Below, in pieces: positions 11,782-31,659 of a DNA stretch of 64,000 nucleotides. This DNA is from an uncultured virus (IMG/VR IMGVR_UViG_3300007346_000024). Its lineage: Duplodnaviria > Heunggongvirae > Uroviricota > Caudoviricetes. The DNA lies in the IMG/VR virus record IMGVR_UViG_3300007346_000024; one strand, written 5' to 3'. The position numbers were made by a program, and so were the translations under genes. The notes under the pieces are model-generated. The model was not told the origin of the DNA, made no database searches, and saw only the letters and a program-made list of their open reading frames with translations. The number at the start of each line of letters is the position of its first letter. Position 1 is the first letter of the stretch.

Positions 11782-12267
11782 CTACTCATCCATAAAGTCT
11801 CCTAATCGTATGTCAATATCTAAAGGAATACTAATAGGGAGACCAAACTTATTAACCCCTAATGAGCCTTTTAGATTTATGATTAAGTTTTTAAAGTCAG
11901 GAGTCAACATCATAGCCGCACCCGTGCTTCCTAATACTTGTTTCAAATTTGCTTTAATATCTACCTCGATAACTTTAGACGAAAAAGGTTTTAAATCAAA
12001 ACCGCTTTTTGATTTTACATCAGCTACCTTGTGACCATTAAGAGATACTACAAAATTGTACCTTTTTATTACAGCCTCTAAATCAGTTGGGTTTTTAACT
12101 TCTAAAAAAAGAGTAGCGTTAAGCGTACCCTTGTTTAAAGAAACTAATCTATAGTCTTTAGGGATGTATTCTAGCTTATAAGCGTTCTGAACTTGCTTGC
12201 TAACATACAAATAACCCCCACCCGCTAAGGCTAGAACTCCTAATCCTATTAAAACCTTTTTGTTCAC
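11782..12267 (-). CDS. LEA_2/WHy-like membrane-anchored protein
   Basis: Signal anchor; LEVKNPT...NG..VA...LKPFS...KGSL pattern. Confidence 0.65.
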   Translation of the reverse strand: MNKKVLIGLGVLALAGGGYLYVSKQVQNAYKLEYIPKDYRLVSLNKGTLNATLFLEVKNPTDLEAVIKRYNFVVSLNGHKVADVKSKSGFDLKPFSSKVIEVDIKANLKQVLGSTGAAMMLTPDFKNLIINLKGSLGVNKFGLPISIPLDIDIRLGDFMDE

Positions 12268-12518
12268 TATTTACCCGCTTTTGCTTTTTTGATAATAACA
12301 ACCATCAAGGCAATACCTAAAAGACCTGCTCCAACTACACCTGCTGTAGCTAAAGGAGACCATTTACTCTCTTCGTCAACCTGAGTGTTTTTTGCTACAG
12401 CCGCTTGAGCTAACAATAAATCAGCATTAGGGTCTCCGTGCTTAATAAGCTTAAGCCTTTCTTTTCTCTCTAAGCATTCGTCTTTTTTATCCCCTCTTTT
12501 TAAGAAACATAGTGCCAT
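12267..12518 (-). CDS. Small C-terminally anchored membrane protein
   Basis: C-terminal TM plus basic tail. Confidence 0.6.
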   Translation of the reverse strand: MALCFLKRGDKKDECLERKERLKLIKHGDPNADLLLAQAAVAKNTQVDEESKWSPLATAGVVGAGLLGIALMVVIIKKAKAGK

Positions 12519-12521
12519 ATT

Positions 12522-12788
12522 CTACCATTTATTTAAAGGACAATTCTCATCCTTGTACTCTGTTTTTAACTTCACAAAGCAACCGCACATTTTACAGTTA
12601 CCCGTTTTAGTAAGACCTCTTTCTCCTTGCTTAGCCTTGATGCCTGTAACCTTTTTCTGACCCGCTTCTAAACTACAAGTCATACAAGTTGCAAGTCTGT
12701 TTTTTCTTTCTTGCTCGGAAACTTTTTCGTCTGTACTATCTTTCTTTAAAGTAGTATAAACTTTGTCTACTAATTTATTTGCTCTCAT
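12522..12788 (-). CDS. Cys-rich zinc-binding protein
   Basis: RLATCMTC...CKMCGCFVKLKT...CPLNKW. Confidence 0.65.
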   Translation of the reverse strand: MRANKLVDKVYTTLKKDSTDEKVSEQERKNRLATCMTCSLEAGQKKVTGIKAKQGERGLTKTGNCKMCGCFVKLKTEYKDENCPLNKW

Positions 12789-12829
12789 ATCATTTTCTTG
12801 TTGGTTAATAACTAACCTAAAGATAATGA

Positions 12830-13339
12830 TTATTTCTTTTTAGCGATTAAGGCTATACCTACAATAAGGATTAAAGCACCACCTCCAATAAGACCGTACT
12901 TTAGACCATTGCTCATACCTTCTGAAGCTTCTGAGTCTGTAGAACCTGAGCTTGCTCCTGAACCTGTAGAACCTGAGCTTAAGCTAGCTCTAGACGCAGC
13001 TTCTCTTCTAAGTCTATCTTCTTCAGCTTTAATAGCTGCCTCTTCTTCAGCTCTTAATTGCTCTTCGTATGCCGCAGTTTCTTCATTTAAAATATCTTCC
13101 TGTAATTTTACAGCGTCAGACTTAAAAAGACTCCCCGTTTCAATTCTTTGCTCAAACTTTCTATCACAATCATTTCTACAATCTCTTCTCATTGCAGTCC
13201 TCTTGCTCTTGCTTTTTAGGATTCCTAATCTTTCGCAAGCAAGCTTACAAGTAGCTCTCAAAGCTGTGGCTCCCGCTGCCTCACTGTACTCATCTCCACA
13301 CGAAGGAGAAAAACCTAATTCGTAATCTAAATTGTGCAT
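12830..13339 (-). CDS. C-terminally anchored membrane protein (Cys pairs, coiled coil, GS linker)
   Basis: YSEAAG motif, CxxxC pairs, C-terminal TM plus KKK. Confidence 0.65.
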   Translation of the reverse strand: MHNLDYELGFSPSCGDEYSEAAGATALRATCKLACERLGILKSKSKRTAMRRDCRNDCDRKFEQRIETGSLFKSDAVKLQEDILNEETAAYEEQLRAEEEAAIKAEEDRLRREAASRASLSSGSTGSGASSGSTDSEASEGMSNGLKYGLIGGGALILIVGIALIAKKK

Positions 13340-13346
13340 ATCTTTT

Positions 13347-14177
13347 TTATTTTCTTCTTAACATTAATACTAAGGCAATAGCTCCTAAACCTAAAGCTCC
13401 CCACTTTAAATATTTTGAATTATCTGAATCAGCTTCTTCTGTCATGTAATCATCTTCAATTACCGATGAATCTGTGTACATTCCATCAGGATTAATGCCT
13501 CCTTCAAAAAGGTCTCCCGCTAAAATTTCATCTTCAATAGACATTCCACTAGTACCTAAACCTAAAGTGTCTTCTCCTTCTACAGGGACATCCATTACGG
13601 CTTCTTCTAATACAGTCTCAACAAAATCGCCTTTAGAACCCTTAGAGCTGTCATCAAACTTATTTGAAACCATAGCGTCTAAAACCTGAACTTGGTCTTT
13701 AGACGAACCCGTTTCTAGACGTTTAAGCGTGTCAATTCTATCTAAGTCTCTTCTAGCTTCAGTAGCTCTAGACATAGATAACTTTTTAGACATACTTCCC
13801 TCTCTAACAGCTATGCTATATCTTGTCTCATTCTTACCGAAAGGAAGTTTAATATCTGCAATACCTATTTTAACTCTGTTAATATCTTCAGCCGCAACAT
13901 GTTTTTTATTAAACAACTTTACTGAAACCTTTACTTTTATAGCCAAATAAGGTATTTCAATAATCTTTCCTTTTGAAAGAATCATTGTGTTCTCTGTCTT
14001 CCTAATTATTTTAATAGGTGCTTTTGCTGAAAAAGCCGACTTTACATGATACTCTAAGTAAACGATAGACTTAGCAGGTATTACAATACTCTTTCTACCT
14101 ACTTTAGTATCTAATGTAATCATGTGCTTGTAGTAAGGATTTACATTAGCTTTTCTCTTTGCGATTGCTTTTAACAT
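13347..14177 (-). CDS. C-terminally anchored membrane protein
   Basis: Basic beta-rich N-domain, acidic linker, C-terminal TM plus RRK. Confidence 0.65.
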   Translation of the reverse strand: MLKAIAKRKANVNPYYKHMITLDTKVGRKSIVIPAKSIVYLEYHVKSAFSAKAPIKIIRKTENTMILSKGKIIEIPYLAIKVKVSVKLFNKKHVAAEDINRVKIGIADIKLPFGKNETRYSIAVREGSMSKKLSMSRATEARRDLDRIDTLKRLETGSSKDQVQVLDAMVSNKFDDSSKGSKGDFVETVLEEAVMDVPVEGEDTLGLGTSGMSIEDEILAGDLFEGGINPDGMYTDSSVIEDDYMTEEADSDNSKYLKWGALGLGAIALVLMLRRK

Positions 14178-14181
14178 ATTC

Positions 14182-14766
14182 TTATTTTTTTCTTAGTAGT
14201 AAAACTGTAACAACACCTAAAACAGCTACACCTGCTACAATACCAACAACTAAACCTGTTTTGCTTCCTGAACCCTCGCTTGCTCCCGCTCCCGCTCCTG
14301 AACCTGCACCTGCACCTGCACCTGCACCTGAATCTGAACCTCCTCCAATTAAAACATCTGAAGAAAGACCTTTTTTATCTAATTTAATTTGATTAACACA
14401 AGAAGAATAGCACTGCTTACCTCCTTGACCCCACTTTAGACCTTTATCATCTTTACAGGTTTGTTTACACTCTTTTCTCTGACCTGATACAATTGCAGGG
14501 TATCCGAAAACACTTCTTGTTCCAAATAAATTACTGTAGTTTTCATCGTGAAAAACCTCTTCTGTTAAATCTCTGTCAGAATCTTCGTTCCATCCGTCCA
14601 TATTGCTCATATTTTCTAACGCTTGGGTATCGTTGTAAAAATCTAAAGACCAATCTTCAGTACCCAACTGAACTTGATACTTATTCATCCCTCTTACATA
14701 AGGGCTTTTAATATTTACATTTCTATTAGGTAATCCTAAATGCAATTGTTGTGCGTAACTTTCCAT
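14182..14766 (-). CDS. C-terminally anchored membrane protein
   Basis: MSNMDGW and YSNLFG motifs, CxxxC pairs, (GA)n linker, C-terminal TM. Confidence 0.65.
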   Translation of the reverse strand: MESYAQQLHLGLPNRNVNIKSPYVRGMNKYQVQLGTEDWSLDFYNDTQALENMSNMDGWNEDSDRDLTEEVFHDENYSNLFGTRSVFGYPAIVSGQRKECKQTCKDDKGLKWGQGGKQCYSSCVNQIKLDKKGLSSDVLIGGGSDSGAGAGAGAGSGAGAGASEGSGSKTGLVVGIVAGVAVLGVVTVLLLRKK

Positions 14767-14767
14767 C

Positions 14768-15277
14768 TTAAATATTCTTTAAAGTGATAACGTCCTCTCT
14801 TACATATCCATAGAAATGGTCAGGAGTTATATAATTCATATCAGGCTCGTCTAACTTCACTTTGAACCACTTATACTTGTCCCCGTATTCTTCAGAATCA
14901 ACAACAGCAGTTACAAGACCAACTCTCTTAGTATAATCTTCATATATGTTATTATTGATTGTACCATCATTTATCTTAGCTGAAGAACGAACATTAACAT
15001 CTTTACCTTTTGGATAAGCAAACATTCCTACTTTCTTATCCCCAACTTCCTTAAGAACTTCTTCAACAGCCGTTTCCTGATTTTCTTTTGCTAAAATTTG
15101 AGCTGCAACAGCTTTCTTTTCAGCTTCAGATTTAGCTCCTTTTATAGCTTCAGCAATCCTAGCTTTCGTTTCAGCCTCTCTTTGCTGCTTCTTCTTTTTA
15201 GCGATAGAAGTCCACAAGTAAACGCCTCCCCCTAAAAGAAGTGTTGAAGCTATACCGATTACTAATTTCTTGTTCAT
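14768..15277 (-). CDS. Membrane-anchored bacterial SH3 (SH3b) protein
   Basis: Signal anchor; VNVRSS...YKWFKVK...GYVREDVI. Confidence 0.65.
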   Translation of the reverse strand: MNKKLVIGIASTLLLGGGVYLWTSIAKKKKQQREAETKARIAEAIKGAKSEAEKKAVAAQILAKENQETAVEEVLKEVGDKKVGMFAYPKGKDVNVRSSAKINDGTINNNIYEDYTKRVGLVTAVVDSEEYGDKYKWFKVKLDEPDMNYITPDHFYGYVREDVITLKNI

Positions 15278-15281
15278 ATTA

Positions 15282-15289
15282 CAAATTTA
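15282..15289 (-). promoter_or_regulatory. -7 box TAAATTTG
   Basis: TAnnTTTG immediately upstream of ATG 15277. Confidence 0.5.
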
Positions 15290-15321
15290 TTTAATAAATA
15301 GATAGGTTTTTAAATTGTCAA

Positions 15322-15762
15322 TTATTTAAAAGAAACAGCGTCTTCTCTTACCCAACCTGTGTCAACTCCTTCAATAACTGTCTTAGGCTTAACTTTATAC
15401 CATAAGTAAGAATCAGAACCAATTTTAGCGTCAACAATAGTCCCTATAGGGTTTGAATCTACTTTAGCTAAAACATTACCTGATAAATAACATAAATCAA
15501 AAACACAACGGCTAGTACCATCAATCACAGGAGTTTGTCTAATGTGAGTATATCCTTCTTTAGAAGAAACGTTAACTTCTTTTCCAATTAAATCAGCCGC
15601 TTGAGAAGGCACTTCAACTTCTTTTTGTTCACAGTCCTCTCCTTTGCATTTTGCCTTCTCAGAACCTCCCGTTCCTTTATCTTTTTTCTTAGTAAGCAGT
15701 AAAATTGTAACTCCTGCCAAAACAACGCTTACTGAAGCGATTATAATGTGTGACTTTTTCAT
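15322..15762 (-). CDS. Membrane-anchored SH3b protein (paralogue of 14768..15277)
   Basis: Signal anchor; THIRQTP...YLWYKVK...GWVREDAV. Confidence 0.65.
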   Translation of the reverse strand: MKKSHIIIASVSVVLAGVTILLLTKKKDKGTGGSEKAKCKGEDCEQKEVEVPSQAADLIGKEVNVSSKEGYTHIRQTPVIDGTSRCVFDLCYLSGNVLAKVDSNPIGTIVDAKIGSDSYLWYKVKPKTVIEGVDTGWVREDAVSFK

Positions 15763-15763
15763 A

Positions 15764-16231
15764 TTAATAACCTAATGTTTTAAGTAGTCTTTTCTTTTCG
15801 TTTTTATTAAACTCTTCAATGATAACATCAATTAAGCTTTCCTCATATCTTATCATATATTCTTTACTTACTAAAGACATGTTGTGAGGGTTAGCCGCCT
15901 CTCTAACTGCTCCATAAAGAGCTTCTTCATCAGTACCCACTCCTGAAGCTGCTTTTTCAAAAACATAAGCAATTTGCTTAGCTCTAAAAGGGTCGATTGT
16001 AGTTTTTATAGGGTTGTAAAAATTAGGTTTGAAGTGATTCAATTTAGATAACTTCTCGTTTATCCTAGTATCCTCTTTATCTTCAATTATACCTAGTTTT
16101 TTTAACGTACCTCTCACTAGTAAAAAACCTCCTACAGTTGATACTAAAATCAATCCTCCTATAACATATGGAGTTGCTTTGTTTTTACTTAAACCGTCTA
16201 CCGCTGCTGCTGCTACTAAAGGTGCTGCCAT
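15764..16231 (-). CDS. Membrane protein with annexin-like repeat
   Basis: TM helix then ASGVGTDEEALY...Y..RY..SL...I..EF. Confidence 0.55.
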   Translation of the reverse strand: MAAPLVAAAAVDGLSKNKATPYVIGGLILVSTVGGFLLVRGTLKKLGIIEDKEDTRINEKLSKLNHFKPNFYNPIKTTIDPFRAKQIAYVFEKAASGVGTDEEALYGAVREAANPHNMSLVSKEYMIRYEESLIDVIIEEFNKNEKKRLLKTLGY

Positions 16232-16258
16232 AACTTATTTTTTTTGTTTATTCAAGAC

Positions 16259-17020
16259 CTAATTTACGTTACAAATTCTAGTTTTCAATTCATCGAAATT
16301 ATCAATGAATGCTTTTAAGTATGCATAACGCTCCTTATTTGTTTCAGTAGGAGTATTATGGAAGGTTTCCAAGAAAGCCTTGTGTGCTTCAATTACAGGA
16401 TAACCTAAACTTAAATAAATTGTCAATGCGTTCAAATCGGCTTCTATCTCATCTTTCTGAATTTCATTCATGTAGTAATGACTGAATTCATGACATAGGA
16501 TAGCCATTCTCATTGGAATACTCATTTTAGAGTATTTAGCTTGACTGATTTCCATTCTACCTGTGCTATTTGATATTCTAGCAGGAGTACTAATAACTTT
16601 CCCTTCGTGCTTAATAACAGGAAGGTAGTCAATCGTGTACATCTTATCGTCACTTTGGTATCTACCCGCTGATAAAATACCTGCGTCTTCACTAAATTGC
16701 TTAGCAAACTCGATGAACGATTGAGTTTCTTCACCAATTAAGCAAGGGTTGTACTGTTCTAAATCAACTCTTTCTAAATTAGTAACCTCAAAAGGCTGAC
16801 CTTTATCAGACCAAACCTTAATCAATAACTTCTTAGGACTCTGAGGCAATCTAATCTCAAACTCCTCTTCACCTTGTACAGTACTCCACCTATCTAGATA
16901 CAAAGCACCTTTCTTAAAAGGGTCTATTGCTCTAATATGAATCTTAGTAGGTCTTTCTGTTGATACACCTACTTTAATATTAGATGGCTGTCTATTTGTT
17001 TCTGCAAAAAATTGCTTCAT
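16259..17020 (-). CDS. HExxH zinc metallopeptidase
   Basis: ILCHEFSH followed by EIEADLNA. Confidence 0.7.
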   Translation of the reverse strand: MKQFFAETNRQPSNIKVGVSTERPTKIHIRAIDPFKKGALYLDRWSTVQGEEEFEIRLPQSPKKLLIKVWSDKGQPFEVTNLERVDLEQYNPCLIGEETQSFIEFAKQFSEDAGILSAGRYQSDDKMYTIDYLPVIKHEGKVISTPARISNSTGRMEISQAKYSKMSIPMRMAILCHEFSHYYMNEIQKDEIEADLNALTIYLSLGYPVIEAHKAFLETFHNTPTETNKERYAYLKAFIDNFDELKTRICNVN

Positions 17021-17118
17021 TAGTCTTCTTTTTTAGAGTACTTCTTATAAGCCATTAAAGCTATAAAAACAACCCCTAATACTACAGCTATCTTATCTCC
17101 TTGTTTTAACCCTTTCAT
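17020..17118 (-). CDS. 32-aa membrane peptide (not in ORF track)
   Basis: MKGLKQGDKIAVVLGVVFIALMAYKKYSKKED; TAATG overlap with the peptidase start. Confidence 0.6.
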   Translation of the reverse strand: MKGLKQGDKIAVVLGVVFIALMAYKKYSKKED

Positions 17119-17127
17119 TATAAATGA

Positions 17128-17604
17128 TTAAGAACATCTACGTAATTTATCATTACCCCATTTAGCACACCTGTCAATACCTGCCTTGTCAACGCATGCA
17201 GAACCGTCTCCGTATTCAGTCATTCCATCGGGACAATAACATCTACCTAAGCTAGCATTTCCGTATAAAGCACACCTCCAAGTTGAATTCTTAGTACTAA
17301 CACACGCAGAACCGTCTCCATACTTTTTCATTCCCGAAGGACAATTGGCATAAGACTTACCTTTTAAAGCAGCTATTTCAGCTCTTGCTGCTTCTCTAGA
17401 AGAAGTTTCCTTTAGTCTAGTAGACATTTCAGCTTTTGCTCTAGACATATCTAGTCTAGACTTTTGCATTCTCTTTTCGTCTTCTAAGTCTCCTTGAAGT
17501 TTTTCAGCTAAAGCGTCCTTGTCTTTTTTATCTTTAATAATAAAGTAAGCACCCGCTCCTAAAGCAAGTACTCCTAAACCTATAATTAAAACCTTTTTGT
17601 TCAT
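17128..17604 (-). CDS. Signal-anchored protein with two Cys-rich repeats
   Basis: CP.GM..YGDGSACV...RCA..GN x2. Confidence 0.65.
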   Translation of the reverse strand: MNKKVLIIGLGVLALGAGAYFIIKDKKDKDALAEKLQGDLEDEKRMQKSRLDMSRAKAEMSTRLKETSSREAARAEIAALKGKSYANCPSGMKKYGDGSACVSTKNSTWRCALYGNASLGRCYCPDGMTEYGDGSACVDKAGIDRCAKWGNDKLRRCS

Positions 17605-17605
17605 A

Positions 17606-18019
17606 TTAGAATGAATTTAAGCTTCCATTTGGAGTTGAACCAAAGTCCATTGGATTTCCTGAGAAAGACATTTTAGAAGGATTGCCTTCAAACTCACTTT
17701 CTTTACCATTAAAACCTACAAACATTGATTGAGCTACTTTTCCTGCTGAACGTCTATTTCTTCTAGCTGCTCCTTGCTCAGCGTTCATAGCTGCAAATTG
17801 AGCTGCTTGCTCTTCAGTTTTAGCCTCTTTAACACCTTCTTTAACGCCTTTCTTAATCTCAGACGCAATATCAGTTGCTTGATTTTGAGCTTCGTGTTGG
17901 TTTTTATAACCCCACTTACCCATCATTCTTTGTGCGATAAGGAAACCTACCCCGATAGAGAAGCCTGCAACAACGCCTCCAATTACTCCTTGCACTATTT
18001 TTTGACCATTTTCTCCCAT
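17606..18019 (-). CDS. Membrane protein
   Basis: N-terminal Gly-rich TM helix. Confidence 0.6.
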   Translation of the reverse strand: MGENGQKIVQGVIGGVVAGFSIGVGFLIAQRMMGKWGYKNQHEAQNQATDIASEIKKGVKEGVKEAKTEEQAAQFAAMNAEQGAARRNRRSAGKVAQSMFVGFNGKESEFEGNPSKMSFSGNPMDFGSTPNGSLNSF

Positions 18020-18030
18020 TTCAATAAGTT

Positions 18031-18207
18031 TTACTTAGTGAATAACTTGTAAATTCCATAACCTGCAAATCCTAATAAAGCGAATTGCACTAATGGATTA
18101 CCTAGATGACTTCTTTCAAATTCTAAAGACTTGTTGATTAATTTATCAACAGGCTCAATTCCCGTTTCTTCAGGAAGACCTTTGAAGTTGTTCCAATCGT
18201 TTTGCAT
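18031..18207 (-). CDS. 58-aa C-terminally anchored membrane protein (not in ORF track)
   Basis: MQNDWNNFKG...VQFALLGFAGYGIYKLFTK fills the gap. Confidence 0.6.
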   Translation of the reverse strand: MQNDWNNFKGLPEETGIEPVDKLINKSLEFERSHLGNPLVQFALLGFAGYGIYKLFTK

Positions 18208-18243
18208 AATATCTATTTTTTAAAATATAAATTAATTACTTGT

Positions 18244-18744
18244 TTATTTCTTTGTTGCGAAGTATATACCTACTCCAATACCGATTAAAGCTAAAGCTCC
18301 AACAGCAACAAAAAGACCTGTTTTTGAAGAACCTTCATCACTACCTCCTGAATAAGAGTCATCAGAATAAGATTCTTGCTCATTAGAACCTCCTGAACCA
18401 ATTTTACCTAAAAAGTTCCCTAAGAAACCTAAAGCAATCTGCCCCATATCGCCCATGCTCTTACTTCTTTTCTTAAAGTCTTCAAAGCTACCTTGATAGC
18501 CTTTACCTAAAGCTTTAGCATATTTTTTAGCAACAGCATCACAAGCTCCATCAGCTCCACATTGGTTAGCAGCATTCATACATTTACCATAAACACTATC
18601 ACCTAAAGAACCGCAAAGGTCTTCAGCTTGCATAGCCGTCATGTTCTCGAAAGAATCTTCTTTCCAAACAGACTTGATAATCTCATCATTAGCAAGAGCT
18701 ACTTCTCCTATCATTGCTGAGTTATATAAAGTATTAGAATCCAT
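18244..18744 (-). CDS. C-terminally anchored membrane protein
   Basis: Cys cluster, amphipathic helix, C-terminal TM plus KK. Confidence 0.65.
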   Translation of the reverse strand: MDSNTLYNSAMIGEVALANDEIIKSVWKEDSFENMTAMQAEDLCGSLGDSVYGKCMNAANQCGADGACDAVAKKYAKALGKGYQGSFEDFKKRSKSMGDMGQIALGFLGNFLGKIGSGGSNEQESYSDDSYSGGSDEGSSKTGLFVAVGALALIGIGVGIYFATKK

Positions 18745-18745
18745 A

Positions 18746-19027
18746 TTATTTTCTATTTTTAATAATTACAATAACACCAATTAAGGCTGCCACCGATATA
18801 CCTATCAAAGATAAGGTTAAAATCCTTTTGTTTTGAGAATTAGTTTCAGACATACTATGACCTCCTGTAGTCTCTTCTGAATAAACAATCTCTTCTTCTA
18901 AAGCTTCTTCTTCTCTAGCTTCTCTTTCAGCAGCTAACTTTGCCTCTACAGCCGCCTTAGCAGCTTCTTTAGCTTCTTTAAATTTTTTAGCACTCATATA
19001 TGAGTAAGCTTCCATTTGATGATGCAT
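18746..19027 (-). CDS. C-terminally anchored membrane protein
   Basis: Ala/Glu helix, C-terminal TM. Confidence 0.6.
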   Translation of the reverse strand: MHHQMEAYSYMSAKKFKEAKEAAKAAVEAKLAAEREAREEEALEEEIVYSEETTGGHSMSETNSQNKRILTLSLIGISVAALIGVIVIIKNRK

Positions 19028-19053
19028 TTTAATTCGTTTTATGATTAATAAAT

Positions 19054-19437
19054 CTAACCTCTTCTTTTTCTAGCAATAACTAAAGCAACTATACCTCCTA
19101 CAAGTACTAGACCTCCCGTAGCAATCATAGCTACTTTTACTTTAGAGGCTGCCGCTGCTTCCGATGCTGCTTTGCTTGCTTCCGCTTCTGCGGCTGCTCT
19201 TTCAGCTTCAGCTTCAGCTTGTTTACTCCTTTGCTTTCCTCCAACTAAGCTACCTAAAACCCCGATTATTGCCGCTCCTGTTCCAACAGCTTTTTTTCCA
19301 TCAATACCTTTACCTACTTCAGCTACTTTACCTGAAGCTGAACCTACAGAGCTACCTATTTTTGAAAATAAATCTCCTAAGTTAAAGTTTGAATACTCTT
19401 CTTTAGATAAATCGTGATATAAACAATTGTAATCCAT
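19054..19437 (-). CDS. Membrane protein (2 hydrophobic segments)
   Basis: EEYSNFNLG motif, Gly-rich helices, C-terminal TM. Confidence 0.6.
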   Translation of the reverse strand: MDYNCLYHDLSKEEYSNFNLGDLFSKIGSSVGSASGKVAEVGKGIDGKKAVGTGAAIIGVLGSLVGGKQRSKQAEAEAERAAAEAEASKAASEAAAASKVKVAMIATGGLVLVGGIVALVIARKRRG

Positions 19438-19439
19438 GA

Positions 19440-19901
19440 CTATTTCTTTTTATAGTTATAATAAATCAATAAACCAACTCCAAGAACAGCTAAACCTCCA
19501 ATTAAGTAATGCTTGCCTTTTATTTTCTTGTCGTCTGTTTTTGACTCGATAATCTCCTCTTCTTCTGACAAAGGTTCTACGTCTGACTCTCCTGTTTCAG
19601 GGTCATATTCTCCTGTAGCTAAACCTCCGATTAAGTTAATTCCCTTATCAAGCCATTCGCTATTTCTAATATTGTTAATCCAATCTTTAAAAGCAGACTT
19701 CTCTCCCTGAACAGGCTCTCCGTCTTGATTGTAATAACCATCTACACCTAACCAACCATTTTCTAATGATTTCTTATATGCTTGGTTAGGTGATATAATT
19801 CCAATTTCAGCTCTATTAGCAAGGTCAACAAATCTCTCTACTTGTTGTTTTTTATAACCCTTACTCAATAAGTAACCGTAAAACTCTGTAGCTGCACCCA
19901 T
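19440..19901 (-). CDS. C-terminally anchored membrane protein
   Basis: YYNQDG motif, C-terminal TM plus KKK. Confidence 0.6.
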   Translation of the reverse strand: MGAATEFYGYLLSKGYKKQQVERFVDLANRAEIGIISPNQAYKKSLENGWLGVDGYYNQDGEPVQGEKSAFKDWINNIRNSEWLDKGINLIGGLATGEYDPETGESDVEPLSEEEEIIESKTDDKKIKGKHYLIGGLAVLGVGLLIYYNYKKK

Positions 19902-20776: not shown

Positions 20777-20779
20777 ATT

Positions 20780-22776: not shown

Positions 22777-22784
22777 TTAAATAA

Positions 22785-23363: not shown

Positions 23364-23364
23364 A

Positions 23365-23899: not shown

Positions 23900-24580
23900 T
23901 TATCCTACTAATGGCTTCCTGTTAGGGAATTGGAACTGAGATAAGTTTGGCTTAGAGTAAGCTTTACCTACGCTTCTTCCTGATAAACCTCTAGAAACAT
24001 CTAACTGCTCCATTGGGTATAATCTAACAGTAAGTGTAGCAGATGCTAAAACTGTAGTTACAACTTTAGTAAATGCGTTTACAGGGAATTTGTGACGAAC
24101 GATAGTCACACCTGACTGCTGCTGCATTGGGTCTAACGCAGGAGAAACAGGTAAAGTAACTTGTCTTCCGTTTGGCTCTCTGTAAGTAATTACTAACTGC
24201 TTGAACGGCTGTGAAGTGTTCGCAGACTGTAAGTACATTAAACCTACTTTGAAAGGCTCTGACTTAATAGACTCTAAGAACTCAGTGTAAGTTACGTCTC
24301 CATTATCCATTGTGATAGTGATAGCCGCAGGGTTACCGAAGTTAGTAGCTCCAAATAAGTTAGAGTTAGCTCCTAAAAATACTACATCTGATACATCATC
24401 AGTAGTTGAGTTAGCGATGTTAATGATGAAAGGCAAAGATGCTTTAGCTTCTGCACCTGCTCCTGCACCTGCATAGTCATAATCATCTGCGTAATCATAA
24501 GCATCAACGTTGTCCCAACCATCGTAGTTTGAATACTCCTCGTTTGCGAAGTTCATTGCGTCTGAAAAATAGTTTTCCAT
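23900..24580 (-). CDS. Putative major capsid protein, single jelly-roll type
   Basis: Acidic/aromatic leader then ~150-aa beta-strand-rich domain; own terminator; paralogous to 27031..29316; near packaging ATPase. Confidence 0.6.
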   Translation of the reverse strand: MENYFSDAMNFANEEYSNYDGWDNVDAYDYADDYDYAGAGAGAEAKASLPFIINIANSTTDDVSDVVFLGANSNLFGATNFGNPAAITITMDNGDVTYTEFLESIKSEPFKVGLMYLQSANTSQPFKQLVITYREPNGRQVTLPVSPALDPMQQQSGVTIVRHKFPVNAFTKVVTTVLASATLTVRLYPMEQLDVSRGLSGRSVGKAYSKPNLSQFQFPNRKPLVG

Positions 24581-25001: not shown

Positions 25002-25724
25002 ATGAGTGAAATTAAATTTCCAAAAGTTTTAATAGCCGCACCTCAGCACGACTCTAAGAGTTACTGTTGGGACAAGTGGGTTGAAAGGGTTAATAACCTA
25101 ACCTATCCTAACTATGATGTCTTTATGGCTGATAATAGTGCTACTGATGACTTTGCTGAAGAAATGAAAAAGAGTGGGGTTAAAGTTAAAAGAGTAGGGT
25201 TCCATTTAGAAGGGGTTTTAGAAAGAACTACTCAAGCACACGAAGCATGTAGGTTAGAGGCTATTAATGGAGATTATGACTTTCTTCTACATTTAGAAAC
25301 TGATATTATACCTCCTCTTGATGTAATCGAAAGACTTCTTATTAATAGAAAGAAAGTTGTTTCAGGTACTTATGATATTTTTCATGGGAAAAGCAGAAAG
25401 TCTATGATTCAGCTTAACGAACCTTTGGATAGAACTTATGGAGCTTATCGTTGTGTTCAATTCGCTGAAGAGCAAGAGCCTTTAATATTTGACGGTACTA
25501 CTAAGCAAGTTTACCATGCGGGAATTGGATGCGTTCTTATCAGTAAGTATGTATTCGAGAAAGTACCTTTCAGATTTGTTGATAACGTACCTTTTCATGC
25601 TGACACATGGTTTGCTAACGATTGTTTTTCTTTAGACATCCCAATCTACTTAGATACCACAGTTAATTGCAAGCATTATAATACTACTTGGTTAGATGTT
25701 GCTGATGAAATATTAAACAATTAA
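25002..25724 (+). CDS. Glycosyltransferase family 2 (GT-A)
   Basis: PKVLIAAP...DNS...YDFLLHLETDII...GIGCVLI...D..F...H. Confidence 0.75.
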   Translation: MSEIKFPKVLIAAPQHDSKSYCWDKWVERVNNLTYPNYDVFMADNSATDDFAEEMKKSGVKVKRVGFHLEGVLERTTQAHEACRLEAINGDYDFLLHLETDIIPPLDVIERLLINRKKVVSGTYDIFHGKSRKSMIQLNEPLDRTYGAYRCVQFAEEQEPLIFDGTTKQVYHAGIGCVLISKYVFEKVPFRFVDNVPFHADTWFANDCFSLDIPIYLDTTVNCKHYNTTWLDVADEILNN

Positions 25725-25754: not shown

Positions 25755-26609
25755 ATGGAGAATACAGAAAAAAAGAAATTAGAAGGTCTTCTTTACAGAA
25801 AAGGTGTAACGGAGTCATTAATGACGGTTTGGCAAAAAGGTATTAAAACCTATAACGAACTTAGGGAGCAATGTATGATTGTTGCTAGCGATGAGACTAG
25901 GACTGATTTAGAAAGGTCTCAGGCTAAAGTTAGAATTCATGAGATTGACGCACCGTTAAAACATTACATTACTTCTTTTAAGCTTTCTAAAAGAGAGTAT
26001 GAGAATTTTATTATTCCTGAGATTGAAAAATTAGTTTCTGAAGAAGATAAGGAAATTATTGGGTTTGTAGACTTAGAAGCTCAAGCAAGAGAGTTAGCTA
26101 ATATTGAAGTTTTCGGTCACGGAAAACAACCTGAAAACGTTGAACTTAATGATGTAGCAAAAAGTCTTTCTCAACACATTGAATTACTTAAGAACATTAT
26201 CGAACAGATTAATGATAGAATTAACACTTCTAGCGATGAGTACGAAAAGGCTGTTCTTAAAATGGATTTATTCAAGCACAACCTTCATTTTATTTCAAAT
26301 AAGAAAAGGTTAGCTGAAAGAATAGACTACTATAATAATCAGTTCCTTCCTAAGTACAATAAAGACATGGAAGAGGCTGATAGGTTATTAGATAAGTATC
26401 TAGATAGAGCTAAAGAACTAATTGCTCTTGGAGTAGATATTAAACTTCAATTCTTAATAGATGAGTACGAAAAGAATAAAGCCGATAAAGAAAAAGTTTG
26501 GTTGTTCTACACGGCTCTTAAGTCAAGAATTAATAAAATTTCTAAGGAAATGAGAAAAAATAAGTCTACATTTAAAGGGAAAATGCATCTTGCAGAAGAA
26601 ATTTCTTAA
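25755..26609 (+). CDS. Helical/coiled-coil hypothetical protein
   Basis: 284-aa charged helical ORF. Confidence 0.65.
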   Translation: MENTEKKKLEGLLYRKGVTESLMTVWQKGIKTYNELREQCMIVASDETRTDLERSQAKVRIHEIDAPLKHYITSFKLSKREYENFIIPEIEKLVSEEDKEIIGFVDLEAQARELANIEVFGHGKQPENVELNDVAKSLSQHIELLKNIIEQINDRINTSSDEYEKAVLKMDLFKHNLHFISNKKRLAERIDYYNNQFLPKYNKDMEEADRLLDKYLDRAKELIALGVDIKLQFLIDEYEKNKADKEKVWLFYTALKSRINKISKEMRKNKSTFKGKMHLAEEIS

Positions 26610-26791: not shown

Positions 26792-27034
26792 GTGAGAAAC
26801 AGAGCCGTGTCACTACGTAAACTAAAACTAGAACTAGAAGGAAAGCAAGTAACTAGAAAAGCATTAGAGAAATTACAATATCATAAAGATGGTAAGGTTA
26901 ATTTTGAGAAAGTAATAGAACTAAGAGATTTAGTTACTGACATCATGCTTTTACAAAAGAAAATTGACTTACTAGAAGATACAGGTCTGTATTTAGGGTG
27001 CAACTCTCAATTAGGTTATTCCTCATCTGTTTAA
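26792..27034 (+). CDS. Hypothetical protein
   Basis: 80-aa ORF with GTG start, helical. Confidence 0.4.
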   Translation: MRNRAVSLRKLKLELEGKQVTRKALEKLQYHKDGKVNFEKVIELRDLVTDIMLLQKKIDLLEDTGLYLGCNSQLGYSSSV

Positions 27035-29316
27035 TTGCCTCTTGAAATATAATTTCTTACAATTGACTTTATATTTCTTTTAGACCTTTTAGATTGGATA
27101 AACTCCTCTTCTGATTTTCTGATAGAATCTATAACTTCTACCTGAGACTCTTTTAGTTTTTCTAAATCAGACTCAATAGAATCTTTGTCTATAAAAACTG
27201 AATCAAGTTTGATTTTAAAGTCTTTAATATCTTGCTCTAAACCTCTTCTTTTAGCTATTGCTATAAGCTTTTCTTTTATGTAATCTTTTTGCTCTTCAGT
27301 AATATCTTCTACCAACTGTTTTAAAGATACATTCAAAGGAATATCGTGAGTTATATAAGCATCTATAGTTTCGATTATCGCGTTTAAATTACCCTTTGAG
27401 TATTCTATAGTAATAACAGCCCCTTGATTAGCTTTTACCTTATAAAGAAGTTTGCTTATTGTTTTAGGTAAGAAGTTAATCGGGTAGTCCTGAATTTTAA
27501 ACTGTCTCTGCATTGGAGATATAACAGGATTGTCTATCAATTTACTTGTATGACCACTAGCTCCTCTATTCACTTTAGTTATAGGCATGTTTGCCTGCTG
27601 TAAAGACTGAGTTCCTATTGATATTGTTTCAAACAAATAAGGAGTAGCATTATTTCTTAGACCTTGAACTAACTCTTCATAAGTCAAACCTCCTCTTACA
27701 TCAACTACTGATATACCCGTCCCTTTTATTACGGTGTTACATACAAAATCATAAGTTACCGCATCTGTATTATTTTCTACGTCAACAAATTTATTTTTCG
27801 TGTAGTACTCTTCTTCTTTAGCTCCTTTATTTTCAGAAGAAGAAGATTGGGATACTGCTGTGGCTATTTGGCTACCTGTAAGATTTGATGAGAACCTAAC
27901 AAAAGAATTATCCCCACTACCTTGCAAGTATTTTATATAGTAACCATTCCCTGAGCCAAAACTCTCTATCTGAACTGCTTGACCATCAAAATCTGTTACT
28001 AAAACTTCATTACTAGCCGAAGTATCAGACCATAAAATATAATCTCCATACACTTCTGCATACGAAAGAGACCTAATTGACCTACCTGAATAAAGGCTAG
28101 AGCTTATGAGTTGTTTAGTTTGAACGTCATAAACATCAACATAAGAACCTGCTCCAACTATACCCGCAACAAAAATCCTGCCTTTTATATATTGAACAAC
28201 AGGTTTATATGTAGACGCGGGCATTCCGTTTATAGTGTCATACAATATTTCATCAGTAGCTTGAGATATATCTCCATTTTCAAACTTAAATACACCCGCT
28301 TCAGCTCCCGTTGCAATTTGACTAGAATTACCAATCCAAGCATTACCTGATTCATCTTGAGAGAAACTCTCTCTTGTTTGAGAAAAAGATATGTTTGTCG
28401 TTCCCGCTACATTTAAAGGTTGTGTCTGTATAATTAGATTTCGGTCTTTATCGTAAGAGACTACTTCGGATGAAATACTTACACCTGTATTCATACCAAT
28501 AGTAGTCTGAGCTGCGTCCCAATAAAAAACAGCTCCTCTACACTGTGTTCCCGTAGGGTTTAAAATAGTATTAGGGGTTGCAAAAGCGTCTAACTCTATC
28601 CATGCAAATGAACCATTAGGCAAATCAACATCAGCTATCAAAGCGTTCTGATTATAGCTATCATAAGCTACAGATGAAGGGTTAGATAAACCCCATGCTG
28701 CATTAGTATCAATAGTTGAAAATGGAGATGTAGGATTCGAGTATCTGTAAAAAGAAAAATACCCTGAATTACTAAGGGTAAAGTAACCATTTTCAGTTGC
28801 CTGACCTGAGCCAAAGTAATTAGTTGAATTCAGAGCTTCCATTAGCCTTACACCGTTAAGCGAACCTAGAGCAAATGGTACTGTAATAGCTGAAGGTGTT
28901 CCAAAATCTACCCCTACAGGAGCTTGCCAAGCACTAAAGTAAACGAATGTATCAAAAGGTCTTTTTACAATCTTAAAAAAAGCACCCTCTACGCTATACC
29001 CAAAATTCTCTTTTGAAGCAGAGTTAAGATTGAGTATAAAGTCTGATATTGTCGTTGATGTAAATGTAGTTGTTTGAGCAACATCATCTTGGTCGAACCA
29101 ATTTATAGTCCATGACTTAGCTGAACCAAAATCAGTTAAAGGAATTAGAACTTCACAAAACTGAGTAGTGAATAAATCCCCATAGCCAATGCCTTGACTA
29201 GGATTAATACCTGAAGGAAGAGCAAACAAATCTATTACTTGGTCTTCATCAGTTCTATTGATTAAAGCAATCTTAATCTCATCCTTAACTAAACTATATA
29301 TTCCTTTGTCGCTCAT
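27031..29316 (-). CDS. Capsid-protein paralogue with large insertion (putative vertex/spike protein)
   Basis: N-terminal ~30 aa and the segment at 27400-27720 align with the putative MCP; ~500-aa beta-rich insert between. Confidence 0.6.
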   Translation of the reverse strand: MSDKGIYSLVKDEIKIALINRTDEDQVIDLFALPSGINPSQGIGYGDLFTTQFCEVLIPLTDFGSAKSWTINWFDQDDVAQTTTFTSTTISDFILNLNSASKENFGYSVEGAFFKIVKRPFDTFVYFSAWQAPVGVDFGTPSAITVPFALGSLNGVRLMEALNSTNYFGSGQATENGYFTLSNSGYFSFYRYSNPTSPFSTIDTNAAWGLSNPSSVAYDSYNQNALIADVDLPNGSFAWIELDAFATPNTILNPTGTQCRGAVFYWDAAQTTIGMNTGVSISSEVVSYDKDRNLIIQTQPLNVAGTTNISFSQTRESFSQDESGNAWIGNSSQIATGAEAGVFKFENGDISQATDEILYDTINGMPASTYKPVVQYIKGRIFVAGIVGAGSYVDVYDVQTKQLISSSLYSGRSIRSLSYAEVYGDYILWSDTSASNEVLVTDFDGQAVQIESFGSGNGYYIKYLQGSGDNSFVRFSSNLTGSQIATAVSQSSSSENKGAKEEEYYTKNKFVDVENNTDAVTYDFVCNTVIKGTGISVVDVRGGLTYEELVQGLRNNATPYLFETISIGTQSLQQANMPITKVNRGASGHTSKLIDNPVISPMQRQFKIQDYPINFLPKTISKLLYKVKANQGAVITIEYSKGNLNAIIETIDAYITHDIPLNVSLKQLVEDITEEQKDYIKEKLIAIAKRRGLEQDIKDFKIKLDSVFIDKDSIESDLEKLKESQVEVIDSIRKSEEEFIQSKRSKRNIKSIVRNYISRGN

Positions 29317-29350: not shown

Positions 29351-29358
29351 CAAATTTA
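29351..29358 (-). promoter_or_regulatory. -7 box TAAATTTG
   Basis: TAnnTTTG match. Confidence 0.45.
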
Positions 29359-29378
29359 TTAAAAAAAGCTCTTTGTTG

Positions 29379-30245
29379 TTAGTTCCCGTAGTACTTTTCA
29401 GTGTACTCCTTAATTAAAGTTTTAGCCAAAGCTTTGTGGTCTTTATGAATAGGTTCTCCTGTAAACAGGTCTTTCTTATTCATCATTGGCTTTACAACTT
29501 TATTATAGTTATCCTCAAGGTACTTATAGATAGCGTGTTGGAATTGTTTCTTAGAGAACTTTCCTTGAATCTTACCTGTGTCTTTGTTTAAGTAAGCGTA
29601 AAACCTTTTGTTACCTTCATGATACTCAAGGTCAACCATTTTCTCAAGAATCTTTAAATGCTCTAAAGTTCCTGCGAATTTGTTTTTATGCCTCTCTACA
29701 GAATCATCACACTTATGATAACGAATCCAATTTGCATTACCCCAAATCTTAGGGTGTGCGGCTTTACCAATTGTTTGGAAATGAGTTATAACATCTACAG
29801 AAGCATGTCTCTGAGTAACGATAGAACCAATTAAATCATTAGGCATTGAATCCGAAACGAATCTGTTAATATCTTCAATTAACAATAATCCATTATGATA
29901 GTGTTCCAATATGTAGCTCAATGCTTCAGAAAGTTCTTTTAAATTCATCTTTCCTCCACCTTCCTTAAGAATGCTAACTCGTCTAGCTTCAACTAAACTA
30001 GAGTCAGCAAACTTTTTAACATCTTCTAACCTTAAACCTTTTACGTTTATAAAATTAGGATTTTGGTCTTCTTGGACGTTACCAAACTCGTTATTAACAT
30101 CTAGTATTAATACCTTTCTAGGTTTAGCTCCTGTAATAGGATTTCCTTTCAAATAAGGTTGTAGCATCTCTAGAGTAGCGTATGTCTTACCTACTCCTTT
30201 TCTACCTACCGCTATTCCTAATAAAGGCTCTCTAAGATTTCCCAT
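29379..30245 (-). CDS. FtsK/HerA-superfamily (A32/P9-like) genome packaging ATPase
   Basis: Walker A GRKGVGKT near N-terminus, Walker B LLLIED, QRH arginine finger, HFQ motif; 288 aa with no nuclease domain. Confidence 0.75.
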   Translation of the reverse strand: MGNLREPLLGIAVGRKGVGKTYATLEMLQPYLKGNPITGAKPRKVLILDVNNEFGNVQEDQNPNFINVKGLRLEDVKKFADSSLVEARRVSILKEGGGKMNLKELSEALSYILEHYHNGLLLIEDINRFVSDSMPNDLIGSIVTQRHASVDVITHFQTIGKAAHPKIWGNANWIRYHKCDDSVERHKNKFAGTLEHLKILEKMVDLEYHEGNKRFYAYLNKDTGKIQGKFSKKQFQHAIYKYLEDNYNKVVKPMMNKKDLFTGEPIHKDHKALAKTLIKEYTEKYYGN

Positions 30246-30253
30246 TTAATTTA

Positions 30254-30261
30254 CAAAGTTA
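30254..30261 (-). promoter_or_regulatory. -7 box TAACTTTG
   Basis: TAnnTTTG upstream of the ATPase ATG. Confidence 0.5.
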
Positions 30262-30267
30262 ACATTA

Positions 30268-31659
30268 TTAATCTACAGTTTCTTCAGCGACTACAGTTTC
30301 AACTACATCAGGCTCATCATGAGGTTGTTGAGAAATTGGATTAGCAGCAGGTTTAGGAGGTGTTGTGATAGCGTCAGGGCTAACGGCTTGTCTTCTCTGT
30401 TCTTTAGCAGCCTTAACCTTAGCAGCATTAGTCTCTCTTGTCATTGTAACAAAAGTCTCCATAATCTGATTAGCTTGCTTCTTTAATTGGAATGCCTGAA
30501 CCCCTTTTAGACCGAAATACTTTAATGACTCAGCTACGATGTATTGACCGTCAGTCATACCCATATCTCGTTTCATCATCTCTCTTTCTAAAGCAGGTCT
30601 AATCTTTTGCTCAAACTCAGGCTCGTAAGCTAAAGCTTCCTCTACCTGCTCATTATACCCTTCAAAGAATCCCGCAGGGCTAACAGTTGTCCCTTGTTCA
30701 TCAATAGGGATTTGCATAGAAGGGTCAATCTCTCCCGAAAGTATTTTTTCCTGAATTTTATCTTCAGGCATTTTAACGAAATTCTGACCTAGAGTATGTA
30801 ACATTTCAAGACCACTGAAAATTGCGTCAGCTAAGTTTTTAACCGCTACCTTTTTGTCTTTAGTGTCCATTTCCTCCATAGCCTCATTTCTGACATTATC
30901 GAAACCTGTAGAACTGCTTTCCTCTTCTTCGTAATACTCTTCGCTACGACTACTAGTTGTTACAGAAGGTTGTTCATCATAAACATTCTCCTCTTCAATT
31001 GGAGAAGTAGAACTTCCATCGTAATCAGGCTCTTCAATCTCTCCTGAAAACCCTCCTTCATTTTTATTATAACTTCTCTCCTTAACAGGGGCAGCTATAG
31101 GGCTGAAGAAATCAGGAATATCATTGTCAGAACCCACTGACTCATTTACCTCTAAATTTTGACCACTCATTTTTTGATTATTTTGATTATCACTTACATT
31201 TTCATTGATGCTCTTGGCAACTCTTTCTGTTTTCTCAGGAATGTCAGAGAATCGTGAGTCTTCGTTGAGTCCTTCATTATCAGTCTTGCGAACTGAGTCA
31301 CGTAGCCCATCTTCTTGTACCTCTTGATTGTCTTCGACATTCTGAACGCTCTCGGAATGCTGTTCTTTTGTGTTTGTTTGTGAATCATCATTTTTAGCAG
31401 CCTCGTTATTTTCAATAGTTTTTCCCTCAAGTATTTCTCCTGTTTCTTTATCAACGTTTTCAGTTTCTTTTGATTCTGAAAAATCGCTATTGAGCATATC
31501 CCAAATATAATTCAATCTAGAAGACTCTTTAACCTCTTCATTACTGAAATCATATTTAGATAATTGCTCTTCATCTAAAGAAGAAAGCAAGTTGTTTATG
31601 TTTTTAACCAAACCTTTCTCAATCTTGTTTGGTCTCCCGTTTTTCTTGAACTTAATCAT
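30268..31659 (-). CDS. Acidic, partly disordered protein upstream of ATPase
   Basis: E/D/N/S-rich N-half, helical C-half. Confidence 0.6.
   Translation of the reverse strand: MIKFKKNGRPNKIEKGLVKNINNLLSSLDEEQLSKYDFSNEEVKESSRLNYIWDMLNSDFSESKETENVDKETGEILEGKTIENNEAAKNDDSQTNTKEQHSESVQNVEDNQEVQEDGLRDSVRKTDNEGLNEDSRFSDIPEKTERVAKSINENVSDNQNNQKMSGQNLEVNESVGSDNDIPDFFSPIAAPVKERSYNKNEGGFSGEIEEPDYDGSSTSPIEEENVYDEQPSVTTSSRSEEYYEEEESSSTGFDNVRNEAMEEMDTKDKKVAVKNLADAIFSGLEMLHTLGQNFVKMPEDKIQEKILSGEIDPSMQIPIDEQGTTVSPAGFFEGYNEQVEEALAYEPEFEQKIRPALEREMMKRDMGMTDGQYIVAESLKYFGLKGVQAFQLKKQANQIMETFVTMTRETNAAKVKAAKEQRRQAVSPDAITTPPKPAANPISQQPHDEPDVVETVVAEETVD

Follow-up and report, generated by a model that had tools for sequence, protein, structure and literature searches.

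Candidate virion-morphogenesis genes of a tailless, membrane-containing build in a large uncultured virus: a B204-like ATPase and two paralogous jelly-roll-like proteins

Gene content of the window

We have analyzed a stretch of 64,000 nt from the uncultured virus IMGVR_UViG_3300007346_000024 of IMG/VR, here called the window, which is only part of the genome. The analysis concerns a block of genes at 11782-32119 that encodes a small ATPase, two paralogous jelly-roll-like proteins and a long run of small hydrophobic proteins. The G+C content of the window is ~33%. Eighty non-overlapping open reading frames (ORFs) were taken from it, on which all later counts for the window rest, and 76 of these are carried by the minus strand. 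All 80 ORFs were scanned against PHROGs (expected value, E, <=0.001), Pfam (E <=0.01) and NCBIfam (E <=0.001), and few were named by these profiles. None of the 80 matched a terminase, a portal, an HK97-type capsid or a tail-tube/sheath family in the three libraries, and none matched a DNA polymerase or a primase. The hallmark set of tailed phages (Caudoviricetes), that is TerL, portal and HK97-fold capsid together, was therefore not found among the window ORFs. A first-pass annotation, made from the letters of the window, had already claimed that terminase, portal, HK97 capsid and tail genes, as well as polymerase and primase, were missing and that the genome was probably larger than the window. 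The scans agree with it, and identical copies of four window proteins occur on contigs of up to 93,865 bases. A 60-base word taken from the end of the window had no exact match in the metagenome and virus collections.

The genes are ordered ATPase, capsid candidates, membrane proteins, spikes, lysis. The features of the block and its immediate flank, in the direction of the minus strand, are as follows.

31661-32119, minus strand: product of the block's first conserved gene, 152 amino acids (aa), with the C-terminal helix-turn-helix domain of DnaA (Pfam Bac_DnaA_C, E 2.7e-11)
30268-31659, minus strand: 463-aa protein encoded immediately upstream of the ATPase, its N-terminal half acidic and of low complexity, its C-terminal half conserved
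29379-30245, minus strand: candidate ATPase for genome packaging, 288 aa, placed in the B204/A32-like branch of the FtsK-HerA superfamily (motifs and model)
27031-29316, minus strand: 761-aa paralogue of the 226-aa protein, adjoining the ATPase gene (profile and hhalign)
25755-26609, plus strand: 284-aa conserved protein on the opposite strand
25002-25724, plus strand: 240-aa probable GT-A-type glycosyltransferase (weak family matches)
23900-24580, minus strand: 226-aa jelly-roll-like protein, major capsid protein candidate (AlphaFold2 model, fold matches)
23865-23847, minus strand: terminator-like hairpin followed by a T-run, 35 bases past the stop of the 226-aa gene
11782-23811, minus strand: run of 23 small ORFs, candidate virion-membrane proteins (hydropathy)
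16259-17020, minus strand: 253-aa HExxH protein (H177, E178 and H181 invariant in a 14-sequence alignment)
12522-12788, minus strand: 88-aa cysteine-rich protein (DUF6171, phrog_13558)
11782-12267, minus strand: 161-aa protein with an N-terminal membrane anchor and an LEA_2 domain (Pfam LEA_2, E 3e-7)
11024-11720, minus strand: two small proteins (138 and 92 aa), immediately upstream of the spike genes

The packaging ATPase candidate

The 288-aa protein carries a Walker A motif, GRKGVGKT, at residues 14-21 and a Walker B motif, LLLIED, that ends in E124-D125. Both motifs are invariant or nearly so across 14-15 relatives; the residues on which the assignment as a P-loop ATPase was based (G14, G17, G19, K20, E124 and D125) are invariant in 14 ATPase sequences. 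Sequence profiles gave weak matches, all below the cut-offs (Pfam AAA_22, E 4e-4; DUF87/HerA, E 0.009). A PDB profile search matched no chain at the sequence level, and comparison with a phage collection, as DNA and as protein, returned no match.

An AlphaFold2 model was built from a 15-sequence alignment and has a predicted local distance difference test score (pLDDT) of 71.9. Among the matches listed by Foldseek for this model in the PDB, all above rank 16 are B204 of STIV or STIV2, the best with E 1.5e-6. VIA-align superposed the model on B204 (4kfr_A) with Z 14.3 and a root-mean-square deviation of 3.0 A, aligning 184 residues of the 204-residue chain. The next neighbours in VIA-align were DndH-C (Z 12.7), HerA (11.5), VirB4 (11.0), FtsK (8.6) and Zot (8.0); TrwB and TcpA were also structural neighbours, alongside VirB4 and HerA (Z 8.8-11.5). 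A solved viral packaging ATPase thus outscores the cellular translocases. On the strength of the model, the 288-aa protein is a small ATPase belonging to the FtsK-HerA superfamily, nearest to B204, with a predicted role in packaging. To our knowledge, B204 is the only solved packaging motor from the tailless, membrane-containing viruses.

The likeness to B204 (STIV/STIV2, Turriviridae) extends over nearly the full length of the structure, and includes a small single domain with Walker A near the N-terminus. The two differ in that they share 15% identity and in an extra C-terminal helical part of ~60 residues in the ATPase described here. STIV infects Sulfolobus, whereas the hosts here are bacterial, and the genome here is at least 3 times larger than that of STIV. 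At E <=1e-10, the family of the ATPase numbers 821 cluster representatives, and the contigs that carry them reach 117.5 kb. One further relative sits on a contig of 1.2 Mb, which may hold an integrated copy.

The 226-aa jelly-roll protein and its paralogue

The AlphaFold2 model of the 226-aa protein has a core at residues 47-196 with pLDDT ~90 and about ten strands, flanked by disordered ends: an acidic, aromatic-rich N-terminus (1-46) and a C-terminus at 197-226. Residues 1-46 are unusually rich in Asp, Tyr, Asn and Gly, a composition that is conserved in the family while the length varies. The matches listed by fold searches with the model are jelly-roll sandwiches, including PRD1 P5, picornavirus VP3, C1q/TNF heads and PR772 chain O. 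Further matches are to capsid proteins of FLiP, phiCjT23, PBCV-1, EhV and Faustovirus, and many of the matches are capsid or penton proteins from tailless viruses. A PDB profile search gave no sequence match for the 226-aa protein, and a protein atlas search gave nothing usable (scores up to 0.79). The model supports assignment of the protein to the jelly-roll-like beta sandwiches as a fold class, without a specific family. The family has 116 cluster representatives in a set of 5.8 billion proteins. For the hairpin after the gene, the scan gave three terminator-like sites in 1.8 kb, against 0.9 expected.

A profile of the 226-aa family also matches the protein at 27031-29316 (E 2.1e-7), as well as the counterparts of that protein in two related virus records, G001 (1.1e-11) and G002 (3.2e-9). 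Aligned with hhalign, the two families match with a probability of 97% and E 8e-11 over 102 columns, or over 182 columns at a relaxed setting. The paralogue varies between 269 and 836 aa over 20 loci. A short strand motif at its N-terminus is conserved, as is the barrel; the middle is variable, and there is a coiled coil at the C-terminus. From this layout, the paralogue may be a jelly roll with a surface insertion, and is a candidate for a vertex protein or for a second capsid protein that bears a tower. The two paralogues are separated by two opposite-strand genes.

These results bear on several proposals of the first-pass annotation. The Walker A and B motifs that it noted at 29379-30245 are present, and its assignment of the ATPase to the A32/B204 class is upheld by the structural match. 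It had also taken the 226-aa protein for a beta-rich, putative major capsid protein with a terminator of its own. The beta-rich, jelly-roll-like core and the hairpin were found as described and the fold test did not refute the idea, although the matches are generic and the capsid role is a prediction. A single jelly-roll capsid protein was expected by that annotation, whereas two paralogous jelly-roll proteins were found.

The membrane-protein run and other proteins of the block

Membrane helices were predicted by a Kyte-Doolittle scan with a 17-aa window and a threshold of 1.6. A hydrophobic helix was found in 20 of the 23 ORFs at 11782-23811, compared to 9 of 19 at 1-11781 and 1 of 38 at 23812-64000; the total for the window, 30 of 80 ORFs, bears out an earlier count of dozens of membrane proteins. 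Twelve of the 20 helices in the run are C-terminal anchors followed by K/R. The same architecture is seen in relatives (18 of 23 ORFs in G001, 15 of 19 in G002 and 8 of 9 in G003, a third related virus record), and several proteins of the run are conserved by sequence.

In the middle of the run is the 253-aa HExxH protein, a probable zinc metallopeptidase to judge from its invariant residues, which could act as a maturation or entry protease. It matched no Pfam family, no PDB entry and no known peptidase family by sequence; homologues are present at 13 metagenome loci, in G001, G002 and G003, and in a metagenome-assembled genome (MAG) of Saprospiraceae. The LEA_2 protein is conserved in G001 and G002. 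The 138-aa and 92-aa proteins matched no family in the library scans, have homologues at the same position in G001, G002 and a contig of the MAG, and are candidate vertex or adaptor proteins.

At the other end of the block, the 152-aa protein matches DnaA in NCBIfam over its C-terminal part only, and homologues were found at 18 metagenome loci and in G001. The 463-aa protein has no family match in PHROGs, Pfam or NCBIfam; its homologues are at 18 metagenome loci (31-45% identity) and in G001. Of the two opposite-strand genes, that for the 284-aa protein has homologues at 30 metagenome loci and in G001 and G002, with no PHROGs or Pfam family match. The 240-aa protein is probably a GT-A-type glycosyltransferase by sequence likeness: in a scan of 18 family members, Anp1 was weakly matched by 10 (best E 1.2e-5) and Glycos_transf_2 by 8 (best E 0.0012), none of them reaching the curated cut-offs. 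A PDB profile search with it gave no match. Homologues of the 240-aa protein were found at 39 loci, in all three virus records and in the MAG.

Conservation of the block in relatives

A search with the 226-aa family yielded 2 virus-collection records and 56 metagenome loci; the ATPase family as query brought in one more virus record and the Saprospiraceae MAG. The relatives compared are G001 (64,176 bp), G002 (54,524 bp), G003 (59,677 bp) and two contigs of the MAG (42,959 and 17,336 bp). The metagenome relatives, which include contigs of 55.8 and 48.9 kb, were viewed within 10 kb of the jelly-roll gene. The set common to these relatives by tblastn consists of the DnaA-C protein, the 463-aa protein, the ATPase, the jelly-roll paralogue, the two opposite-strand genes, the 226-aa protein, tail-anchored membrane proteins, and the HExxH, DUF6171, LEA_2 and two small pre-spike proteins. 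Sequence comparison thus shows that the block at 11782-32119 is conserved as a unit in 56 metagenome loci, three virus records and one MAG. It is followed by spike-like proteins and lysis genes; lying between these and the early genes, it sits at the usual position of structural genes.

The most informative relative is G003, in which a 127-bp direct terminal repeat was confirmed and which is therefore regarded as a complete genome of 59,677 bp. It contains the ATPase (34% identity), a jelly-roll homologue (profile E 8.3e-12) and then tail-anchored proteins; an integrase, polyvalent proteins and homologues of the HExxH and 240-aa proteins are encoded as well. A scan of all its 90 ORFs found no portal, HK97 capsid or tail family, and its sole "terminase" match is the B204-like ATPase itself (phrog_2666, E 1.8e-8). 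Likewise, no terminase, portal, HK97 capsid or tail-tube family was matched by 96 of 98 ORFs scanned in G001, or by 85 of 86 scanned in the two MAG contigs. The integrase of G003 is of the tyrosine type (L075, 9281-10444) and is accompanied by an anti-repressor and repressor-like regulators; part of the lineage, at the least, is therefore temperate. As to size, G003 has 59.7 kb, G001 has at least 64.2 kb, the proteins of the window's own virus are found on a 93.9-kb contig, and contigs with ATPase relatives reach 117.5 kb.

An apparent counter-example is an assembly chimera

G002 (IMGVR_UViG_3300034357_000647) has the block at 183-19,000, cut by the start of the contig. Its genes also include those for TerS and TerL (the latter matching Pfam Terminase_3C at E 1.4e-15), for a portal and a head protease, and for one tape-measure-like and one capsid-like protein. 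The last 733 bp of the contig repeat positions 16942-17673, within the block-side spike gene, at 98.9% identity, and the 225 bp before them match at only 87%. Because of this repeat, the path 17,673-53,793 closes a circle of ~36.85 kb. A search with the portal of G002 led to G405, a siphovirus record of 36,552 bp with terminal repeats, whose portal is 93% identical and from which both the ATPase and the jelly-roll protein are missing. Its collinearity with G002 extends over 17.2-53.75 kb, including across the inferred junction of the circle; only 220 of its bases match G002 1-16,900. From the repeat and the collinearity with G405, we conclude that G002 is a fragment of a block virus joined to a complete siphovirus of ~36.5 kb through a shared receptor-binding segment. 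Tetranucleotide correlations within G002 are 0.69-0.88, and base composition alone did not settle the matter. G002 was accordingly rejected as a tailed phage that carries the block, its terminase and portal part belonging to a separate siphovirus like G405.

The ORF at the end of the G002 contig encodes a long fibre-type protein that has only its C-terminal part in common with the 544-aa block-side spike. The same receptor-binding domain is thus found on two N-terminal attachment domains, a short one in the block virus and a long, fibre-type one in the siphovirus (G002 16488-17673 and 53471-54524; L009-L011).

Spikes, lysis genes and other proteins of the window

The features of the window outside the block that could be named are listed below.

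62373-62870, minus strand: 165-aa phosphatidylserine-decarboxylase-like protein (Pfam E 3.2e-6, 27.4 bits with a cut-off of 22 bits; NCBIfam matches below cut-offs)
58431-60257: ART-PolyVal protein (profile match)
45516-52301, minus strand: 2261-aa polyvalent protein with SNF2-type helicase (Pfam SNF2-rel_dom, ResIII, Helicase_C; PHROGs 1685, 62, 11801)
32203-32601: VRR-Nuc/resolvase-like protein (profile match)
7483-10379, minus strand: 744-aa (8145-10379) and 220-aa proteins, spike/receptor-binding candidates (position between block and lysis genes)
6963-7256, minus strand: holin (PHROGs E 3.2e-11)
3763-4284, minus strand: DUF5675 protein (profile match)
3023-3664, minus strand: glucosaminidase-type endolysin (PHROGs E 7.1e-39; Pfam Glucosaminidase E 5.9e-29)

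A C-terminus in the spike region at 7483-10379 matches phrog_27064 (E 2.6e-5), and the positional counterparts of the spike candidates in G001 match tail-spike or virion-structural PHROGs. Upstream of the 744-aa candidate, a 64-aa ORF (10399-10593, minus strand) copies its first 18 N-terminal residues exactly and stays similar for a few more; to judge from this copy, the ORF is possibly a remnant, or else a cassette for swapping the attachment end of the spike. The lysis region spans 3023-7256 on the minus strand. Two other proteins, of 659 aa (387-2366, minus strand) and 214 aa (33322-33966, minus strand), have N-termini that look alike by eye (MNL.N.D.I...YIDG.NR...F), which may represent an attachment module shared by two different proteins. 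Counterparts of the 2261-aa polyvalent protein were found in G001, G003 and the Saprospiraceae MAG. The phosphatidylserine-decarboxylase-like protein resembles an enzyme of lipid synthesis, and is encoded here by a virus predicted to bear a membrane.

Host

Evidence on the host is indirect. Phage records with a relative of the G002 siphovirus portal number 148, of which 145 are named for genera of Bacteroidota (Bacteroides 98, Phocaeicola 24, Parabacteroides 15, Cellulophaga 7, Tenacibaculum 1); the other 3 names are uninformative. Since the receptor-binding segments of the two components of G002 are nearly identical, the block virus in that sample can be argued to infect the same kind of host. 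Of 401 Bacteroidota genomes sampled, one matched the ATPase profile, namely the Saprospiraceae MAG mentioned above. The two contigs binned there are entirely viral and have no bacterial flank, and such binning is weak evidence. The nearest phage relatives of the endolysin are Firmicutes phages and the last gene of the window matches one Microcystis phage; neither is informative on the host. The proposal of the first-pass annotation that this is a phage of Bacteroidota thus gains indirect support from the portal kin and the MAG, and by these sequence comparisons such a host is plausible for the window's virus.

Comparison with known virus groups

The largest cultured phage of tailless, inner-membrane build in our comparison is SSIP-1, with a circular genome of 43,788 bp. 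It is described as a tailless inner-membrane phage of a Bacteroidota host, with PRD1-type architecture and two types of capsid protein (PMC6356626). Its 2319-aa structural protein gp43 shares polyvalent domains with proteins of G003 (E 6.5e-12), and for this reason the polyvalent proteins of the present group probably travel in the particle. SSIP-1 differs in GC content (57% vs 33% here) and in size (43.8 kb vs 59.7 to ~94 kb or more here). Its size also exceeds the range of ~10-31 kb that the first-pass annotation had given for known kin.

The Sphaerolipoviridae and Simuloviridae (the type of Thermus phage P23-77) are described as having a packaging ATPase, two single-jelly-roll capsid genes, an inner membrane and genomes of 16-31 kb (PMC12643093, PMC12642351). 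The present virus resembles them in that two jelly-roll paralogues are encoded near the ATPase, and the variable insertion of one of them is a possible tower. It differs in its larger genome and in the two opposite-strand genes that split the paralogues, and the likeness is one of layout. PRD1 and PM2 have the gene layout ATPase, capsid, run of small membrane proteins, spikes, lysis. The likeness to PRD1 (Tectiviridae) and PM2 (Corticoviridae) lies in this layout and in weak fold matches that include PRD1 P5 and a chain of PR772; both viruses differ in having a double jelly-roll capsid protein and genomes of 10-15 kb. Prokaryotic double jelly-roll viruses known from metagenomics are given as 7-18 kb (PMC5894146). 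Our literature search found no description of a lineage such as the present one, within a coverage that leaves out most subscription journals and so is no proof that none exists.

Interpretation and alternatives

We put at roughly 0.7 the probability that the window belongs to a tailless, membrane-lined jelly-roll virus with a B204-like motor, in which 11782-32119 is the virion-morphogenesis block of a PRD1/SSIP-1-type build. The role of the 226-aa protein in the capsid is something we infer, as are the internal membrane, the icosahedral shape, the packaging of polyvalent proteins and the host phylum. In such a virus, the shell would be assembled from the 226-aa single-jelly-roll protein, and the paralogue with its variable surface insertion would serve as a vertex protein or as a second capsid protein with a tower. 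Assembly of the shell would take place over a lipid vesicle bearing ~20 single-pass, mostly tail-anchored membrane proteins, and the preformed particle would be filled with double-stranded DNA by the pumping of the small B204/A32-like ATPase. The spikes, whose genes lie just downstream, would attach to the host, and the holin and endolysin would free the progeny. The giant polyvalent proteins would probably be packaged and delivered with the DNA. The large tailless phage of a jelly-roll lineage with an internal membrane, as conceived in the first-pass annotation, thus retains its ATPase class, its jelly-roll fold and its density of membrane proteins, while the membrane and the capsid role are predictions; its label of "jumbo" overstates a size of 60-117 kb. 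Tailed-phage genes in relatives would have told against the idea, and none were found in G003, G001 or the MAG contigs, the set in G002 being that of the chimera.

Several points weigh against this interpretation. The fold searches gave generic matches for the 226-aa protein: their highest Z, 6.2, is below the noise level of 7-8 stated for the tool, and they include C1q/TNF-like fibre heads, tail and cement proteins of tailed phages, and carbohydrate-binding modules. The capsid role is therefore put forward as a prediction. Capsid proteins of the P23-77/SH1 type are absent among the fold matches listed, and neither a penton protein nor a double jelly-roll protein was identified by the family scans and the models, which were made of the 226-aa protein and the ATPase. 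A membrane cannot be demonstrated from sequence, so that the internal one is predicted from hydropathy. SSIP-1 shows no ATPase or jelly-roll profile match at E <=1 beyond noise. Some relatives match PHROGs of the "tail" category (spike, fibre, fibre chaperone, Ig-like repeats). About 30 kb of the virus's own 93,865-base contig lie outside the window and could hold anything. Finally, a CheckV label of "100% complete" was also given to the chimeric G002, and this label is therefore unreliable here.

Some of these points would fit a tailed phage whose hallmark genes are in those ~30 kb or are too divergent to be matched, the block being an accessory membrane system with a HerA/FtsK-type ATPase. 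The incomplete window, the joining of the block with TerS, TerL, tape-measure-like protein, protease and portal on the G002 contig, and the spike, fibre and fibre-chaperone matches in relatives could all be cited for it. We nevertheless regard it as unlikely, since the complete G003 has the ATPase, the jelly-roll homologue, the tail-anchored proteins and the HExxH protein and none of the portal, HK97 capsid and tail families in 90 of 90 ORFs, the tailed-phage part of G002 is a separate genome, and the block occupies the structural-gene position. A tailless virus of some other build, for example an enveloped or pleomorphic one with the membrane proteins in an outer envelope and the jelly rolls as surface or nucleocapsid components, is a little less probable again. 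It would accommodate the trimeric C1q/TNF-like heads and PRD1 P5 among the fold matches, the lack of an identified penton protein, a genome far larger than those of known inner-membrane phages, and the N-terminus of the 226-aa protein, which is acidic and not basic. However, ATPases of the B204/A32 type, as found here, are tied to packaging into preformed icosahedral shells, and the holin and endolysin point to lytic release rather than budding. Moreover, SH1 and viruses of the P23-77 type have two jelly-roll capsid genes beside the ATPase, a layout that the two paralogues near the ATPase fit.

We consider quite improbable, and the least probable of the three, that the genes encode a non-viral apparatus for DNA transfer, such as a novel conjugation or secretion system with a VirB4/HerA-like ATPase and membrane proteins. 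VirB4, TrwB, TcpA and HerA are indeed among the structural neighbours of the ATPase, and the scans of the window and of G003 found polyvalent proteins, ParB, methyltransferases and an integrase, which are reportedly also typical of conjugative elements (Iyer et al. 2017). Yet the best full-length match of the ATPase is B204, and at 288 aa it is of viral size. No relaxase, coupling-protein or Tra/VirB family was matched in the 80 window ORFs by Pfam, PHROGs or NCBIfam, and the combination of relaxase, coupling protein and VirB4/TraC-class ATPase of at least 600 aa that would mark a conjugative element is absent from these ORFs. Holin, endolysin and spike- or fibre-like proteins are present, and the relatives are catalogued as viruses, one of them with terminal repeats.

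Significance

Beyond the window's own virus, we see about an even chance that the block marks a widespread, undescribed lineage of high rank among viruses of marine and freshwater bacteria. Its members would have two paralogous single jelly-roll proteins, tailless membrane-lined capsids, 60 to ~117 kb of DNA, a B204-like motor and giant polyvalent proteins in the particle. Tailless, membrane-containing phages are otherwise known from a handful of isolates of 10-44 kb, and 60 to ~117 kb is 1.4-2.7 times the size of SSIP-1, the largest cultured one compared. Phage detection that is based on capsid, portal and terminase genes would then miss a sizeable group of bacterial viruses in aquatic habitats. 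The lineage would offer a bacterial system for the study of how jelly-roll capsids over a membrane are scaled and of how large polyvalent proteins are delivered. If the reading is true, the design of single jelly roll and FtsK-type motor extends in bacteria to large genomes, and does so independently of the eukaryotic giant viruses.

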